Below are positions 15,852-62,812 of a stretch of 64,000 nt of DNA, in pieces. A model generated the notes under the pieces. That model saw only the letters and a program-made list of their open reading frames with translations. It did not search any database and had not been told where the DNA came from. Numbering within the stretch: position 1 is the stretch's first letter; each line of letters opens with the position of its first letter. Made by a program: the position numbers and the translations under genes. Source of the stretch: an uncultured Candidatus Saccharibacteria bacterium (GTDB lineage Bacteria > Patescibacteriota > Saccharimonadia > Saccharimonadales > Saccharimonadaceae); NCBI GenBank assembly GCA_946406665.1, contig CAMJLE010000002.1, forward strand, positions 1,200 to 65,199, in the 5' to 3' direction.

Positions 15852-16252
15852 TTTATGGTAATCTCCCGCGTATCTTCGTTAATATATTTAATTTCAATGA
15901 TATGACGATCCTCCGGCAAGACATCTTTAATACTCTGCCCCCATTCAACTACCGTGATAGTATCTGGATCGGTCATTGTGTCGGCAAGATTTTCGGCCAT
16001 AATGCCAGGGTCAGCCAAGCGGTAGAAATCATAGTGAACGAGACGATATTCTTTACCGGCGTATTCTTTCGAAAGGGTGAACGAAGGAGACGTAACCCCC
16101 TCTTTGACGCCCAGCCCCTGCGCAATTCCGCGCGTAAATGTAGTCTTGCCCGCTCCTACGTCGCCTATTAGTTCCAGAACGGCCGGCGCCGTGAGCGTTT
16201 TGGCAAAATCACTACCAGCTTTAATCATTTCCGCTTCAGAGTGAATTAACAT
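15848..16252 (-). CDS. tsaE: tRNA t6A biosynthesis ATPase TsaE
   Basis: GDVGAGKTTFTRGIAQGLG, SPSFTL, HYDFYRL. Confidence 0.85.
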   Translation of the reverse strand: MLIHSEAEMIKAGSDFAKTLTAPAVLELIGDVGAGKTTFTRGIAQGLGVKEGVTSPSFTLSKEYAGKEYRLVHYDFYRLADPGIMAENLADTMTDPDTITVVEWGQSIKDVLPEDRHIIEIKYINEDTREITIK

Positions 16253-17721
16253 GCATATATTTTACCATATTTTTGAGAATTATCCAGGACGGCGATTGGC
16301 CGGTAACTATGCTTTGTGATGCGCCAAAGAACAAGAGTGATAGCGATTATTGGGATAAAAAGCAAAAATGATGCCGGTTGAGATTGTGCAAAGCTAACGG
16401 TCGCCCATTTTATTTCACTCAAATGACGGATTACAAATATCTGAAAGGTGAGGATCGTTTTATCGACAAATACTATCAAAGTTGAGAGCGTACCTAACGG
16501 AATTATAGACAACAAACTAAGAAGCATAACGACCGGGATTAACGGCGTAACCAGCATATTCCCGACTATACTAATTACGGAGAATTGACCGAAATAGAAA
16601 ATGCTAAGTGGCAAGCAATATAGCTGAGCAGAAATTGTAACGATTATTATGTCCGCGAAAAAACTTGGACGGGCGTGGCCATAGAGAGTTTTAATAAGCA
16701 ATGGCGACAAAAACATAATGCCGGCGTATGAAGCCATAGAAAGTTGCCAAGCCATACTCAACAAAACGCCCGGATTAGCCATTGCGGAAATAGCCGCCAC
16801 ATAGACTAGAAGCCGACCGGGATGGAATCTTCGTCCATAATATCCAAATAACAACGACAGCCCCGACACTAGCCCAGCGCGTAGCAAGCTTGGGCTTAGC
16901 CCAGCGACAAGTATGAAGCAGGTCATCAAAACGGTAGCAGAAGAAAAGCCGGCAAAGCGGGAAATCTTACCGATTCATTTTCTCGCCGCACTCACGAGAA
17001 CTGATAGGCTAAAACCAGATGCTACAACAATATGCGAGAGTCCGACAATTTTTAGTTGCTCTTTGAGCTCAGCGGATAGCGGTTTTTCGCCAACCAAAAA
17101 GCCGAGTGCTAGATCGACAGCTGGGCTACTTATCGATTCACGTAGGTGCGCCACAGCAAACGAGTGGATGGCGGCAAAATAGTCTGGCGGATCAGGCTTA
17201 CTAGACCCCAAAATAACGGGGCGACTGATTGAAAAACTATAATCACCAAAACCCGCCCGTATCCTGGCGCGCATCTTTACCCGATCGGAGCGCGAGAGTG
17301 AGGGCTCTTCTCCGGCTAGAACCGCATATGCTTGACATTTCAGCTGTTTTGTGCTATTATTAAATAGTATGTCCCCTATTTGAAGGCGGACTTGATTGTT
17401 GGTGTCTTTCGATAAATCTAAAACCGTTGCGTTAACAATAGCTTCTCGGCCGACATAGCTACTAATTATCGCTTCATCATGATTGATTTGGCCGGTACGA
17501 AAAAGACCTGCTAGCACTCCTCCTAATAAGGCGCAAAAAATACGGGTAAAATTTGATGGCGCGAATGAGACTAAAAGCAAGACTAACGCGATTACGATAA
17601 GCTCAAAGAACGTAGTTGCTCAGGAAGTTACTAATGTGACTATAGTTCCCGCTATTATGCCAACCCCAAAGAGAAGAGGCGATATCGAGATATGCAGTAA
17701 GCGTTTATTGGACGAAAACAT
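16246..17721 (-). pseudogene. comEC: DNA internalization channel ComEC/Rec2, one continuous frame interrupted by two in-frame TGA codons
   Basis: Track ORFs 16975..17580 and 16246..16929 are in the same frame, separated only by a TGA (complement of 16975-77). A further upstream ATG at 17721 (MFSSNKRLLHISISPLLFGVGIIAGTIVTLVTS) joins in frame through a second TGA (complement of 17620-22). ComEC motifs are LSHIVVASGFSLSVL and LVAGLSPSLLRAG. Confidence 0.7.
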
Positions 17722-17788
17722 ACCGTAATTATATCGTTGGCGAAAAGACGAATGAAGCATAAGTATAAATATCTGTTATAATGATGTA

Positions 17789-39212: not shown

Positions 39213-39659
39213 ATGTCATTTGAACTATTAAAGTTGGTGGGAGATGCCCAAAAGAAGAAGGCCGTCATTGACGTCCGCCCTGGCGATACCGTCCGTGTGT
39301 CCCAAAAGATTAAGGAAGGTGACAAGTTCCGTATTCAGGTTTTTGAAGGTACGGTAATTCGTGTTGACCGCAAACAATCCCATACAGAGCGCATTGTCGT
39401 ACGCAAGGTTGCTTCTGGTGTTGGCGTCGAGAAAAGCTTCTTGATGCACAGCCCACTCGTAGAGAAGGTAGAGATCGTTCGTCGTGGCAAAGTTCGCCGC
39501 AACAACTTGCGCTATCTCCGCGAGCGTTCTGGTAAGTCCGCACGTCTTGCTCAGAAAGATTTTGATCGTCATGCAGTGAATACGCTTCCGGAAGAAGAGG
39601 TTGCAGAAGAAGCCCCAGCCGAGGAAGTCAAAGAAGCCGAAACGGCAGAAGCTGCCTAA
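39213..39659 (+). CDS. rplS: 50S ribosomal protein L19 with acidic C-terminal tail
   Basis: RPGDTVRV...RIQVFEGTVI...RRGKVRRNNLRYLR. The tail is EEEVAEEAPAEEVKEAETAEAA. Confidence 0.95.
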   Translation: MSFELLKLVGDAQKKKAVIDVRPGDTVRVSQKIKEGDKFRIQVFEGTVIRVDRKQSHTERIVVRKVASGVGVEKSFLMHSPLVEKVEIVRRGKVRRNNLRYLRERSGKSARLAQKDFDRHAVNTLPEEEVAEEAPAEEVKEAETAEAA

Positions 39660-39660
39660 A

Positions 39661-40578
39661 TTGGCAATTTTAGGAATAGATGAAGTAGGAAGAGGTCCCT
39701 GGGCGGGACCTCTTGTTGTTGGTGCGTGTGTTTTGAGTGATGCGCAAATCGAAGGCTTAACCGACTCTAAGAAGCTTACGCCTAAGAAACGCGAGGCATT
39801 GGCGCCGATTATTCAGGAGAAGGCCGCTGTCGGCCTTGGTTGGGTTTCGGCCGCAGAGTTGGACGAGCTCGGCATGACGGCTGCGCTCTGCAAAGCTTGC
39901 CGCGAAGCAGTGAAGCAAATCCATGTGCCTTTTCATGAAATTATTATCGATGGCACAATTAACTTCCTGCGCGACACGCCGTTAGCATCACACGTGCAGG
40001 TTTTGACCAAGGCGGATTTGTTAGTGCCGGAAGTATCGGCGGCGTCGGTTGTGGCTAAGGTTGCGCGTGATAATTATATGTATAAGTTGGCCGAAAAATA
40101 TCCTGGTTATGGATTCGAAAAACATGTCGGCTACGGTACGGCAGCACACCGCAAAGCGCTAGAAGAACTCGGCGTATGCCCAGAACACCGAAAAAGTTTT
40201 CGCCCAATTGCGGAGATGCTAGGCATTGTGCCGGCAAAGAATAATCCAAAAAGCACCAAGACGAAAGGCGACCGTGGCGAAACAGCGGTTTGCGACTATT
40301 TAATTAAAAGTGGGCATGAAATTGTAGCGCGAAACTGGAAGAATAAGTTTTGCGAAATTGATGTAGTATCGAGGTTTAACGGCGTGTTATGTTTTACGGA
40401 AGTTAAATATCGACGCGCTGGGGCAGGGCTGGATGCGATAGACAAAAAGAAACTCGAGAAGATGCGTTTTGCGGCGGAGTTTTACTTGGCCCAGAATGGT
40501 GGCGGTGCGGCAATTTTAGCGGCCGCCGAAGTATCGGGCGACAATTACGAAGTTACGGATTTTCTAGTCCTACAGTAG
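39661..40578 (+). CDS. rnhB: Ribonuclease HII fused to YraN (UPF0102) endonuclease-like domain
   Basis: GIDEVGRGPWAGPLVV and DSKKLT (RNase HII), then C-terminal KGDRGETAVCDYL..EIDVV..FTEVKYR (YraN-type). I prefer the TTG start at 39661, right after the rplS stop. The track ORF starts at TTG 39601, inside rplS. Confidence 0.75.
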   Translation: MAILGIDEVGRGPWAGPLVVGACVLSDAQIEGLTDSKKLTPKKREALAPIIQEKAAVGLGWVSAAELDELGMTAALCKACREAVKQIHVPFHEIIIDGTINFLRDTPLASHVQVLTKADLLVPEVSAASVVAKVARDNYMYKLAEKYPGYGFEKHVGYGTAAHRKALEELGVCPEHRKSFRPIAEMLGIVPAKNNPKSTKTKGDRGETAVCDYLIKSGHEIVARNWKNKFCEIDVVSRFNGVLCFTEVKYRRAGAGLDAIDKKKLEKMRFAAEFYLAQNGGGAAILAAAEVSGDNYEVTDFLVLQ

Positions 40579-52023: not shown

Positions 52024-52089
52024 ATCTCCTCCTATTTATGAGGTTATTATAGTCCAGTGTAATACATTTTTCGTATATAATATCCATGA

Positions 52090-52618
52090 ATGATGTTCGT
52101 AGCTGGAGAGACACTGTCGTTGCTGGCTGCGCTTGCTTTGGTATATTCTACATTCACCAACAAGAAGCAGGAAATGATGAAATGGCAAGCACTGAAATGC
52201 GGTCTTTCTCGGGTTTTCGGATTGGTTTCTGGGTGCCCATTCGGCCGTTGTGACAAATGTTCTGACCTTCGTTAGAAATATTCTATCCGCGAAGGGGAAG
52301 CTAAGCAAAAGTTTAACTTTGGTTATTTGCGCGCTAATGATTGTCGTTGGCTCGCTATTCAATAATCGGGGCTGACTGGGCGTGTTGCCGATAGTCGCTT
52401 CGGTGCAATTTACGCTTTGCGTCTATTCGCTAAAGTCTGCGCAGCATATGAGAATTGCGCTCATAGTTAATTTGATGCTGTGGGCAATTATTGACTTCTT
52501 AATCCAGGCTTACCCAATGTTCGTTGCCGATATAGTGATTGCCATAGTGACGTTCGTAAATGTATTGAGATTTCGAGACGAACGTGGCAATAAGAAGCGC
52601 AAGAAGGCGACCAAGTAA
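52090..52618 (+). pseudogene. YgjV-like inner-membrane protein remnant (one frameshift plus one in-frame TGA)
   Basis: Three pieces: MMFVAGETLSLLAALALVYSTFTNKKQEMMKWQAL (frame 1); NAVFLGFSDWFLGAHSAVVTNVLTFVRNILSAKGK...NNRG (shifted frame, switch near 52190-52200); then TGA at 52373-75 followed in frame by LGVLPIVASVQF... The family call is from memory. Confidence 0.4.
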
Positions 52619-52818
52619 CCTCGCGAGTGGGAACAAAAAAGTGGGCTTGGTTGCTACCCGACGGCTGCAAGCCGCCCTTCTTCTCTTTATCGTATTTACG
52701 CAATTCTACCTTTTCTGCCCATCTAGTAATTGTATCTTTAACTTCCGCGCAACAAAAGCGTGAGTTTATTCCGACCGACGCGATGCTCCCGCTTGGCGCT
52801 AGGTGTTATAATACAGAT

Positions 52819-61252: not shown

Positions 61253-62812
61253 TTATACCCTACGAAACTTTGACAGAACACGCCGAGCAACACGGCAAAG
61301 CTCGCGTCGATATTGATATATGACATATATGATGCTTGCGGCCAATATGATTACAATTGTCGCTAATGCCGTAAATACTTTTGGGTTTTGATACGTTTCG
61401 CTATTATCTACGGGCGTAGGGGCGTAATCGACAGATTCGCCATCATTCTCGCGAATCTTGCGACATCGATTTGTCTCGGGATTACGCTCATAGCCATCTT
61501 TACAGGGGGCGAGATTGTTAGCGCTAGCAGTAGTTTTCTTGCGACAACGGTTCGTTTCTGGATTACGCTCATAGCCATCTTTACATGGAGCAAGCGCCAC
61601 CGCGGCCGTCTCTATTGTTTTGCAACGACGAGTGAGCGGATTAAGGTATTTTCCAGCAGGACATGTAATAGGCGTATTTTCTTGCTCTTTAATACAATTC
61701 CCGGTGGCCTTATTTATAATTTTTCCCGACGGGCAACTTTGAAATTCTTGGTATTTGTTTGGGGCGCCTGGGGTTGGCGAATATGTCTGGAGCCAGCCGG
61801 AATCGTCAGTGTCTATACCGAATAAGGCATAGGATACACCTTTTCTTTGACCGTGCGGATAGTTCACGGAGGCAACAATCGCATCCTGAACATCCTTTAT
61901 TACGATCGTGTTTGTGGCGGTCGGATTTTTTGTGAGCGCAAGCTCGGCATCTTGAAAGAGATAGTAGCCTCCCGGCGAAACAACCCCATCTAGGGCGAAT
62001 GACGATGTTTTATATTCTAGCGAGCATCCAGTAAGTGACAGGTTGTTTTGCGAGGGATTATATAGCTCTATAAATTGCTCTTGCGGCGAATTAATGTAGT
62101 AACTGTAGATTTCACTAATAACTATACCATCGCAAGAATCTTGCGGAAGGCTCTGCTCGGGTTCGACATTAATATCGGGCTCCGGCGATGACAGTTCTGG
62201 CGGCGCGGATTCTGGCGCCTTCTCCGCGATGCTGTCAAAATTTGGTTCTGGATAATATTTCTGCGTAACATAAGTGGAATTATCGGGGCAATCTTCTTCG
62301 CAGCGCACAATAGAAGTGTTGTCTTCTGCCTTAGTAGAGAACTTTGCGTAGTTTTGCTCGCATTCTATCTTCCCCCAGCAGACTTCGTCTATTAAATTCT
62401 CCCCATGATATAGCTCAAGCTTCCCTGCGGTGGAGGCTAAGCCGGCAGTGCCGAAATTATAGACGTAGGGGCTACTCGGGATGGAGCTATACTGGGGGTT
62501 GACAGATGCTCCGAGAATGAGGCGGTTAGATGAGAGTACTAGATTTTCGGCAAATGTTATTTCGCCCGCATGATTCCCTGAACTATTCGTATAAACGAGT
62601 CGGAATGACTCAAGTTCTAATTCCGAGTCATACATACGTTCTAGTTCTATAAAATCATAGTGCTGATTCGAATCATCATCCTTAAAGCCCGCGTTCATTG
62701 CATATATGCGCAAAAGCGGTTGACCAGAATCGTCTTCCGCAAAAGATGGGCGTGTTCAAATAAAACAGCTCGCGATAGTGATAATTGGCAAAATATACAA
62801 CAGTTTCTTCAT
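61253..62812 (-). CDS. Surface protein with two lamin-tail-like (LTD) domains, four CxxG..N..T..C repeats and C-terminal TM; signal peptide separated by an in-frame TGA
   Basis: FIELYNPSQNNLSLTGCSL (LTD). The repeats include APCKDGYERNPETNRCRK twice. The upstream in-frame ATG at 62812 gives MKKLLYILPIITIASCFI-TGA-TRPSFAEDDSGQPLL and continues into the track ORF (TTG 62713). Confidence 0.6.

Follow-up and report, generated by a model that had tools for sequence, protein, structure and literature searches.

Apparent tryptophan read-through of in-frame UGA codons in comEC and other transformation genes of one Saccharibacteria genus

The stop codon UGA can be leaky: tRNA-Trp reads it as tryptophan (Trp) in the A1 read-through protein of phage Qbeta and, at a low level, in Bacillus subtilis and Escherichia coli. 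In Streptomyces, the development of the organism is controlled through a sense codon, TTA, and the regulated tRNA encoded by bldA. In prfB, the gene of release factor 2 (RF2), an autoregulatory +1 frameshift takes place at CUU UGA C (reviewed in PMC5009743). Reassignment of UGA to Trp was previously known in Bacillota, Pseudomonadota and Verrucomicrobiota, to which Actinomycetota have been added (PMC13462651), and within Patescibacteriota Codetta infers UGA to be Trp in the family JAKLIH01 of the class Minisyncoccia (PMC13092985). In Providencia siddallii strains PSOF and PSLP, nine genes each (~1.3-1.5%) carry UGA at Trp positions, some of them shared between strains (PMC10540940). For the competence genes of Saccharibacteria, no published description of in-frame UGA was found. 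Here, a 64,000-nucleotide stretch of an uncultured Candidatus Saccharibacteria genome (the window) is described, in which the DNA-uptake channel gene comEC is interrupted by two in-frame TGA codons, together with the genes of the same genus in which this pattern recurs.

The source genome (G000; 756 kb in 47 contigs, 84% complete, ~46% G+C) contains the window at C2:1200-65199. It was compared with species genomes of the same genus, labelled with G numbers, among which G052 is the nearest relative and G006 a distant one. All genomes compared are metagenome bins, and the genome counts given throughout are inflated by kinship. The comEC locus consists of the following features:

Window 16246..17721, minus strand: comEC/rec2-type DNA-uptake channel gene, assigned from Pfam PF03772, TIGR00360 and orthologs
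Window 17620..17622, minus strand: first comEC TGA (..LVTS-TGA-ATTFF..), codon 34 from the 17721 start, within the first transmembrane stretch
Window 16975..16977, minus strand: second comEC TGA (..AARK-TGA-IGKISRF..), inside the Competence domain

Read on the minus strand, comEC forms a single open reading frame (ORF) from 17721 to 16246, with 491 codons followed by a TAA stop. Exactly two in-frame stops lie within it, both TGA, with no TAA, TAG or frameshift. The initial annotation had described the gene in these terms, and the description is borne out, well beyond what chance would give, by a domain match that spans the second TGA and by orthologs that align from end to end. In the read-through product, Pfam Competence PF03772 (E=1e-32) covers residues 224-480 of a 504-residue form, which would begin at an alternative upstream start, the ATG at 17760; the N-termini of orthologs favour 17721. 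A match to TIGR00360 (E=1.4e-17) is also present, and orthologs of 490-510 residues in other Saccharibacteria align with the read-through protein over its full length. At the N-terminus, the OB-fold domain DUF4131 scores 20.9 bits, under the cut-off of 31.6. The C-terminal metallo-beta-lactamase nuclease domain is absent from the window protein and from the ~500-residue Saccharibacteria orthologs, and because of this shared absence the window protein is classed, by its predicted domains, as a short ComEC form. The TAA stop comes just past a conserved C-terminal ..KYGKIYAC. The C-terminus itself (window 16246-16290) carries a motif, ..LDKSxKYGKIY(x)C, that is strongly conserved right before the stop in Saccharibacteria orthologs, and no coverage of this motif was found among the Pfam or NCBIfam matches.

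The interruption of comEC by TGA is a feature of the genus. Between one and five in-frame TGAs are present in comEC of 28 of the 59 genus species genomes (14 of 24 in a first sample), and none in 16 other families of the order. Both window TGAs recur in G052 and G008, whose ComEC proteins are 52-59% identical to that of the window. Twenty comEC loci, a set outside which G052 stands, were compared codon by codon, and TGA occupies 16 different columns. At the column of 17620-22, TGA is found in five of these species and TGG (Trp) in three; G052 also has TGA there, and the database homologs P0006 and P0014 have Trp. At the column of 16975-77, TGA is found in G052 and G008, and the closest database homolog, P0002, has Trp (AKKWAGKISFF). 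From these alignments, we read both window codons as Trp. The same exchange appears elsewhere in the protein: at the invariant W338 of ‘AWQLS’, three species have TGA and, of the 17 others, 15 have Trp, and the Trp column of ‘AWYFGR’ is TGA in three species. The remaining comEC TGAs lie at variable columns, chiefly in the first transmembrane segment, and comEC of G007, G019 and G066 accommodates four to five UGAs in one gene. All 20 loci end in TAA or TAG, 18 of them directly after GKIYxC and two (L016 and L019) slightly earlier. Some comEC matches contain in-frame TAA or TAG; in the loci inspected, which do not include those of G057, G065, G051, G060, G063, G050 and G073, these codons either precede the genuine start or are the terminator of the gene.

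Other genes of the genome show the same pattern. A genome-wide tblastn comparison of G000 and G052 under code 4 was filtered by a codon-position test, since conserved antisense frames and alignments running on beyond genuine stops dominated the raw output; a second scan compared G000 with the distant G006 under a clean-HSP (high-scoring segment pair) filter. A genome-wide codon-usage coding score was uninformative, with antisense frames scored as coding and comEC itself missed, and the list of code-4 ORFs was too noisy. The G000/G052 scan found genuine in-frame TGAs only in comEC, comM, comFC, a cutinase-PKD gene, a lamin-tail-domain (LTD) gene and a YgjV-like gene. The scan against G006 returned the same genes and one YraN-like gene, giving ~7 genes in the scans, or ~1% of genes. 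A family search added dprA. The members of this set other than comEC and the YgjV-like and YraN-like genes are located as follows:

G000 C9:9386-10903: comM/yifB, with one in-frame TGA
G000 C4:30676-31341: comFC, with two in-frame TGAs
G000 C1:49821-50667, minus strand: dprA, added by the family search
G000 C10:10744-12273, minus strand: secreted protein with cutinase and PKD domains, with two in-frame TGAs
Window 61253..62812, minus strand: LTD surface protein, 519 residues when read through, Pfam LTD PF00932 (3.5e-11)
Window 62756..62758, minus strand: in-frame TGA within the LTD signal peptide (..ASCFI-TGA-TRPSFA/EDD..)

The genes comFC, comM and dprA are situated outside the window, and their link to the comEC TGAs is not visible from the window alone. 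Within the genus, comFC carries an in-frame TGA in 48/54 genomes, comM in 22/53 (all at one column), dprA in ~27/55 and the cutinase-PKD gene in ~27/53, and TGA falls inside the matches to the LTD protein in ~42/59. In the control genes the codon is missing: uvrA has it in 0/59 genomes, secY in 0/52, and prfB and prfA in none. It is also missing from pilC and pilB/pilT in the five genomes tested, and an effect extending to competence as a whole is thereby ruled out. Six genomes (G002, G015, G049, G058, G059 and G073) have TGA in none of the four transformation genes. In the other genera with a hit, no TGA occurs in comF among the matches listed (150 of 184; 201 genomes from 95 genera of the family).

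In these genes, too, the codon falls on Trp positions. At the invariant Trp of ComFC ‘DDVWTTGSS’, TGA replaces the Trp codon in six species, and 24 others keep Trp. Over the whole gene, comFC has TGA and TGG in a ratio of 40:38, and nearly every species has exactly one TGA, distributed over 13 different columns. In ComM, ‘NLRELWLF’ has TGA in nine of 12 loci and Trp in three, and for the invariant Trp of the DprA motif ‘xLW’, 14 species use TGA and 18 use TGG. Across 62 comEC, comM and comFC loci, 83 TGAs are found at 30 distinct columns, with neither TAA or TAG nor any frameshift. The strongly conserved columns that bear TGA are all Trp columns; Gly is seen at variable columns only. Among the residues that the initial annotation had considered for such sites (Trp, Arg or Gly), orthologs have Trp at the conserved TGA columns. 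In comEC, comFC and dprA, the TGAs cluster toward the 5' end.

The TGA-bearing genes are constrained. For comEC as a whole, the ratio of nonsynonymous to synonymous substitution rates (dN/dS) lies at 0.15-0.27, also in pairs with a dS of ~0.1. Past the last TGA, the three closest pairs give 0.34-0.45, from small counts, and a single distant pair gives 0.18. Values of 0.08-0.19 are obtained for comFC and of 0.05-0.10 for comM. By this comparative measure, comEC is shown to be intact and under purifying selection, and pseudogene status is rejected on its low dN/dS (0.15-0.27), the restriction to TGA and the lack of frameshifts. Taken together, the alignments show TGA standing for Trp at conserved columns and selection acting across the TGAs. 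The loss of ComEC envisaged in the initial annotation is not supported. Its proposal of recent nonsense mutations is refuted by the sharing of TGAs with G052 and G008, by their spread over ~16 columns in 28/59 species and by the dN/dS of 0.15-0.27, and its proposal of sequencing or consensus error by the recurrence across assemblies. Its third proposal, some level of UGA read-through, gains support in a more specific form, with Trp as the residue and with a genus-wide distribution over a recurrent set of genes.

UGA is still used as a terminator in these genomes. Among 654 ORFs of at least 100 residues in G000, 356 end in TAA, 197 in TAG and 101 in TGA (~15%). Extensions past the terminator have a median of 10.5 codons after TGA, 13 after TAA and 15 after TAG, and few are long. 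In G052, TGA ends 109/672 ORFs, again with short extensions, and G006 behaves likewise. The reading of G052 as a fully recoded genome, suggested by its low ‘completeness’ and missing RF2 as in G016, is ruled out by the 109/672 TGA ends. A genome-wide enrichment of in-frame TGA, considered in the initial annotation, is not seen, with ~1% of genes affected and ~15% ending in TGA.

RF2 exceeds the model cut-off in 54/59 genus genomes, including G000 (C6:25308-26345). The five shortfalls correspond to contig ends, masked bases or incomplete bins; the fragments in G007, for example, lie at contig ends and masked bases. In all genomes searched, prfB matches the model in a single frame, without its usual autoregulatory frameshift. 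The loci compared (G000 C6:25308-26345, L021-L026, L129-L133 and L204-L213) have intact SPF and GGQ motifs in the aligned sequences. Beside these motifs, TGA-bearing species have derived residues (SPFNADH, YHSGGHGGQ, TTNSAVR) at places occupied by N, R and D in the TGA-free G002, G015 and G059 and in outgroups, and G046, G049 and G058 are mixed. A link between these residues and the TGA trait, confounded by phylogeny, is a lead only.

The only tRNA-Trp found in G000, G052 and G006 carries the anticodon CCA on a 5-bp stem and has a C11-G24 pair. Its sequence is 99-100% identical throughout the genus, and an outgroup genus has identical D and anticodon arms; an apparent 14-nt ‘insertion’ in the G007 copy is a masked run of N. 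The suppressor tRNA with anticodon UCA that the initial annotation proposed to look for was not found: none is present in G000 (30 tRNAs), G052 (39 tRNAs; two contigs, 795 kb) or the 735-kb contig of G006 (41 tRNAs). Because RF2 is intact, TGA ends ~15% of genes and only tRNA-Trp(CCA) is found, UGA appears to be read through as Trp without a change of the code. Code 4 (UGA=Trp) agrees with UGA at conserved Trp positions but is rejected on the retention of RF2, the termination at UGA and the absence of tRNA-Trp(UCA). Code 25 (UGA=Gly) is rejected as all conserved TGA columns are Trp and RF2 is present. Selenocysteine recoding is rejected too, with no tRNA-Sec found by ARAGORN in G000 or G052 and with Trp rather than Cys as the aligned residue; the selenocysteine insertion sequence (SECIS) and selB were not searched. 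The comparisons show a trait specific to one Saccharibacteria genus and to a small gene set, in which RF2 and tRNA-Trp(CCA) are retained and UGA still terminates.

In dprA, UGA is encountered in a different arrangement. The gene of G000 is in two frames, which switch at ..CAC CGA GGT TGC CTT TGA CGC CGG.. (C1:50395-50409). Frame 0 reads AHRGCL and then TGA, and frame +1 continues with DAGGITIAVLGTPID, the DprA consensus. The dprA of G062 (L202, G062:C7:41500-43500) has the same layout, ..GGG TGT CTT TGA TGC AGG.., with different synonymous flanks, and at the switch position 30 other species read CTN GAY in frame. The G000 element contains CUU UGA C, the heptamer at which the prfB +1 frameshift takes place. 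Both G000 and G062 have a prfB-type slippery CUU-UGA with the 0 and +1 frames conserved on either side of the switch. Upstream of the CTT, G000 has GAGGT with a 3-nt spacer, which is suggestive only, and G062 has only GTGGG; these bases are also constrained by Arg-Gly codons.

A mechanism that would account for these observations is as follows. The single tRNA-Trp(CCA) would read in-frame UGA by near-cognate pairing, in competition with RF2. Because tRNA-Trp competes with RF2 at UGA, full-length protein would be made at a reduced yield that depends on RF2 activity. Trp read-through and +1 shifting at CUU UGA are both more efficient when RF2 is limiting, and the dprA genes of G000 and G062 would owe the same RF2 dependence to the +1 frameshift at CUU UGA. 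With less certainty, selection may maintain the UGAs because they throttle or gate translation, so that the part of competence concerned with DNA translocation and recombination would be expressed weakly or only under certain conditions. The gated steps would comprise the channel, the handling of single-stranded DNA, RecA loading and branch migration, and the type IV pilus genes, having other uses, would be unaffected. The coherence of the gene set, the pattern in comFC of one TGA with its position free, the clustering at 5' ends and the independent dprA +1 site speak for such a gate. The explanation as a whole, comprising Trp read-through, RF2-dependent yield and UGAs selected as a gate on transformation, is considered probable on comparative grounds, with room for doubt.

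The main competitor is neutral tolerance, in which UGA is somewhat leaky, perhaps through a weakened RF2, and TGG>TGA and other changes to TGA drift to fixation only in rarely used, low-copy, non-essential genes with little dependence on protein level. On this view, the genus would be at an early ‘ambiguous intermediate’ stage on the way from UGA as stop to UGA as Trp, of the kind proposed for the leech symbionts Providencia siddallii, and the UGAs would have no regulatory role. The TGA:TGG ratios of 40:38 in comFC and 9:3 in comM are near the mutation-only ratio expected if the two codons are equivalent, and some members of the set have no evident connection with competence, namely the cutinase-PKD gene, the YraN-like gene of G006 and the YgjV-like gene. 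The derived residues by SPF and GGQ in the RF2 of TGA-bearing species, missing in G002, G015 and G059, would also fit, and there is a precedent in PSOF and PSLP, where nine genes each have UGA at Trp and RF2 and tRNA-Trp(CCA) are kept (PMC10540940). Drift, however, does not readily explain why the same genes are affected across ~50 species, with four of six belonging to one functional module, or why comFC has at least one TGA in 48/54 genomes and rarely more than two, at changing positions. In a naive comparison with a Poisson distribution (mean 1.1), comFC is under-dispersed, with six zero-TGA genomes against ~18 expected. In two species, the dprA site arrives at RF2 dependence in another way, the TGAs lie near the 5' ends of comEC, comFC and dprA, and neither spread to further genes nor loss of RF2 is seen in the 59 species. 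A gate is favoured over neutral tolerance, to which we assign a real but distinctly minor share of the probability.

The other alternatives are much less probable. If the competence genes were being lost and the TGAs were inactivating nonsense mutations, the genes would be broken, as they are under table 11; ComEC does evolve fast (59% identity between G000 and G052, against 78% for ComM), and the YgjV-like gene in the window looks truly decayed, with a TGA and a 1-nt insertion. A decaying gene, however, would show TAG as often as TGA, frameshifts and a dN/dS near 1, which makes decay unlikely: TGG changes to TAG as easily as to TGA, yet the 62 loci have 83 TGA and no TAG, TAA or frameshift. 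The TGAs lie on invariant Trp columns, dN/dS is 0.05-0.27 overall and remains below 1 (0.18-0.45) past the last comEC TGA, the ComM TGA has been kept at one column through speciation, and the genes are full length in 53-59 of 59 genomes. Equally improbable is a dedicated decoding device, such as a tRNA(UCA) encoded by a replicon missing from the assembly, a tRNA-Trp modified at C34, or A-to-I editing of UGA to UGI, which is read as UGG. Efficient decoding would be needed where four to five UGAs occur in one gene, and all assemblies are metagenome bins, G000 having only 30 tRNAs; but a UCA tRNA is absent from G052 (39 tRNAs) and from the 735-kb G006 contig (41 tRNAs). The target motif of TadA is U-A-C-G, and the sites misfit it, the A being preceded by G and the +4/+5 positions having no C-G preference. 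Sequencing, assembly or consensus error at 16975-77 and 17620-22 is only an a priori possibility in any metagenome-assembled genome and can practically be dismissed here: independently assembled genomes of other species also have TGA at both codons, and the pattern is gene-specific over 59 assemblies.

Several observations weigh against the combination of Trp read-through and a selected gate. At an ordinary read-through of 1-5%, four to five UGAs per gene would leave essentially no protein; such comEC genes therefore demand efficient read-through or an unseen stimulus. A special tRNA-Trp was looked for and rejected, since neither a Hirsh-type A24 nor a 4-bp anticodon stem nor a UCA copy is present. 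No conserved motif was found around the in-frame TGAs; the +4 base is A or C in 74%, near the value for TGG codons of the same genes, and the depletion of T reflects coding composition. Back-up stops after TGA terminators are not in excess (p=0.16), contrary to what strong leakiness throughout the genome would predict. Nor is the gene set one of competence alone, given the cutinase-PKD member and the sporadic YraN-like and YgjV TGAs. The pattern of one TGA per comFC is confounded by shared ancestry, and the choice of a gate over neutral tolerance is an inference only.

In its boldest form, the gate would be a UGA-gated transformation regulon, in which the late competence proteins ComEC, ComFC, DprA and ComM, and perhaps the LTD protein, are made only when RF2 termination at UGA is inefficient. 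Trp read-through and the prfB-like dprA frameshift would then act together, and RF2 activity, or the balance between RF2 and tRNA-Trp, would be the switch for transformation. This extension is tentative and, in our judgement, more doubtful than not. The LTD protein, which could serve in it as a surface DNA receptor, may replace ComEA, whose type of HHH_3 domain was undetected in four of five genus genomes (G006, G007, G024 and G052). The LTD protein of the window is membrane-anchored and has Cys-rich repeats, and LTD domains occur in extracellular DNA-binding nucleases. Its role as a receptor that functionally belongs to the transformation module is speculation. Its signal-peptide TGA is TGA at the same column in G052, with diverged flanks.

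The remaining genes of the set differ in their standing. In the cutinase-PKD gene, the TGA of ..DE-TGA-RQF.. is common to G000, G052 and G006, and in G006 the Trp just ahead of the GYSQG active-site motif is also TGA. The YraN/UPF0102-like sequence is part of a longer ORF (G006 C3:453806) with an in-frame TGA (..RGDKGE-TGA-VVAEFL..), where G000 has Thr; the G000 counterpart is window 39484-40578. This gene is a sporadic further member of the UGA-bearing set. The YgjV-like gene is marked by one further feature:

Window 52373..52375, plus strand: TGA in an Imp-YgjV-like gene, TGG in the ~99% identical G052 copy

The initial annotation had grouped the LTD and YgjV-like genes as interrupted by TGA only. 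This holds for the LTD gene (62756-58); in the YgjV-like gene the TGA (52373-75) is confirmed, but a 1-nt insertion is present as well. Relative to the intact gene of G052, the G000 copy has the TGG>TGA change and, upstream of it, the insertion. Window 52060-52630 (G000 C2:53260-53830) has ~99% DNA identity to G052 C1:259540-260120, and the same pair of genomes has 59% protein identity in ComEC and 78% in ComM, which suggests a recent exchange of this segment. The YgjV-like TGA is probably a genuine recent decay outside the conserved trait, and not every TGA in the G000 genome is functional.

These findings bear on how such genomes are annotated and used. Gene calling under table 11 splits or drops comEC, comFC, comM and dprA in this genus, and metabolic and lifestyle reconstructions would then give a false loss of DNA uptake and transformation in these nucleotide-auxotrophic epibionts. 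A stable, multi-species ambiguity of UGA as stop and Trp, with RF2 retained at 45% G+C, offers a test bed for the ambiguous-intermediate route, in a phylum from which UGA=Gly and one recent UGA=Trp family are reported. If the UGAs are selected, they would constitute a translational gate on natural transformation, combining read-through with a prfB-like frameshift, without a like among the precedents compared; the regulon, if true, would mean that a bacterium uses a stop codon to regulate an entire regulon. Genetic work on Saccharibacteria depends on natural competence (PMC10633639). Members of this genus may be poorly or conditionally transformable, and a UGA->UGG swap could improve that.

Compared with known systems, Providencia siddallii PSOF and PSLP are the closest precedent. 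There, as here, RF2 and tRNA-Trp(CCA) are kept and UGA still ends some genes (PMC10540940). The Providencia genes, however, are miscellaneous, many are essential, and one strain has reached 20% of genes; the genomes are those of extremely AT-rich intracellular symbionts of leeches with 22-24% G+C (PMC10540940), against 45-46% here. In this genus, by contrast, about six genes recur with TGAs at different columns in ~50 species, four of them forming the transformation module, with neither spread nor RF2 decay and with a CUU UGA +1 frameshift in the same module. As in read-through of the Qbeta A1 or PSOF/PSLP type, UGA stands at Trp, RF2 and tRNA-Trp(CCA) are retained and the downstream frame is selected. 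The presumed chemistry is that of Qbeta A1 and other leaky UGAs, with near-cognate tRNA-Trp(CCA) competing with RF2 and Trp being inserted. Unlike the A1 extension past a normal stop, or background noise, UGA lies here inside conserved domains, and read-through would be required for any function.

The code 4 lineages, comprising Mycoplasmatales, Hodgkinia, Nasuia, Zinderia, Stammera, JAKLIH01 (PMC13092985) and Eggerthellaceae (PMC13462651), are alike in having UGA at conserved Trp positions. They differ in that this genus keeps RF2 (54/59), ends ~15% of its genes in UGA, has ~1% of its genes affected, and possesses neither a tRNA-Trp(UCA) nor a tRNA-Trp with a 4-bp anticodon stem; JAKLIH01, moreover, is of the class Minisyncoccia and not Saccharibacteria (PMC13092985). 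The code 25 lineages of the candidate phyla radiation, Absconditabacteria (SR1) and Gracilibacteria, share the recoding of UGA within Patescibacteria, but here the amino acid is Trp and not Gly, there is no genome-wide reassignment, RF2 is kept and UGA ends genes. The dprA site resembles that of prfB, with an identical heptamer CTT TGA C in G000 (CTT TGA T in G062) and the downstream frame at +1, and its efficiency should likewise rise when RF2 is scarce. Unlike the prfB site, it lies in dprA, with a putative Shine-Dalgarno-like element and predicted frameshifting, and prfB of this genus is itself in one frame. In concept, the proposed gate is closest to bldA/TTA control in Streptomyces, as a rare, poorly decoded codon in a non-housekeeping gene set would tie translation to one decoding factor. 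The codon here is a stop codon in place of a sense codon, and the factor is presumably the balance between RF2 and tRNA-Trp.

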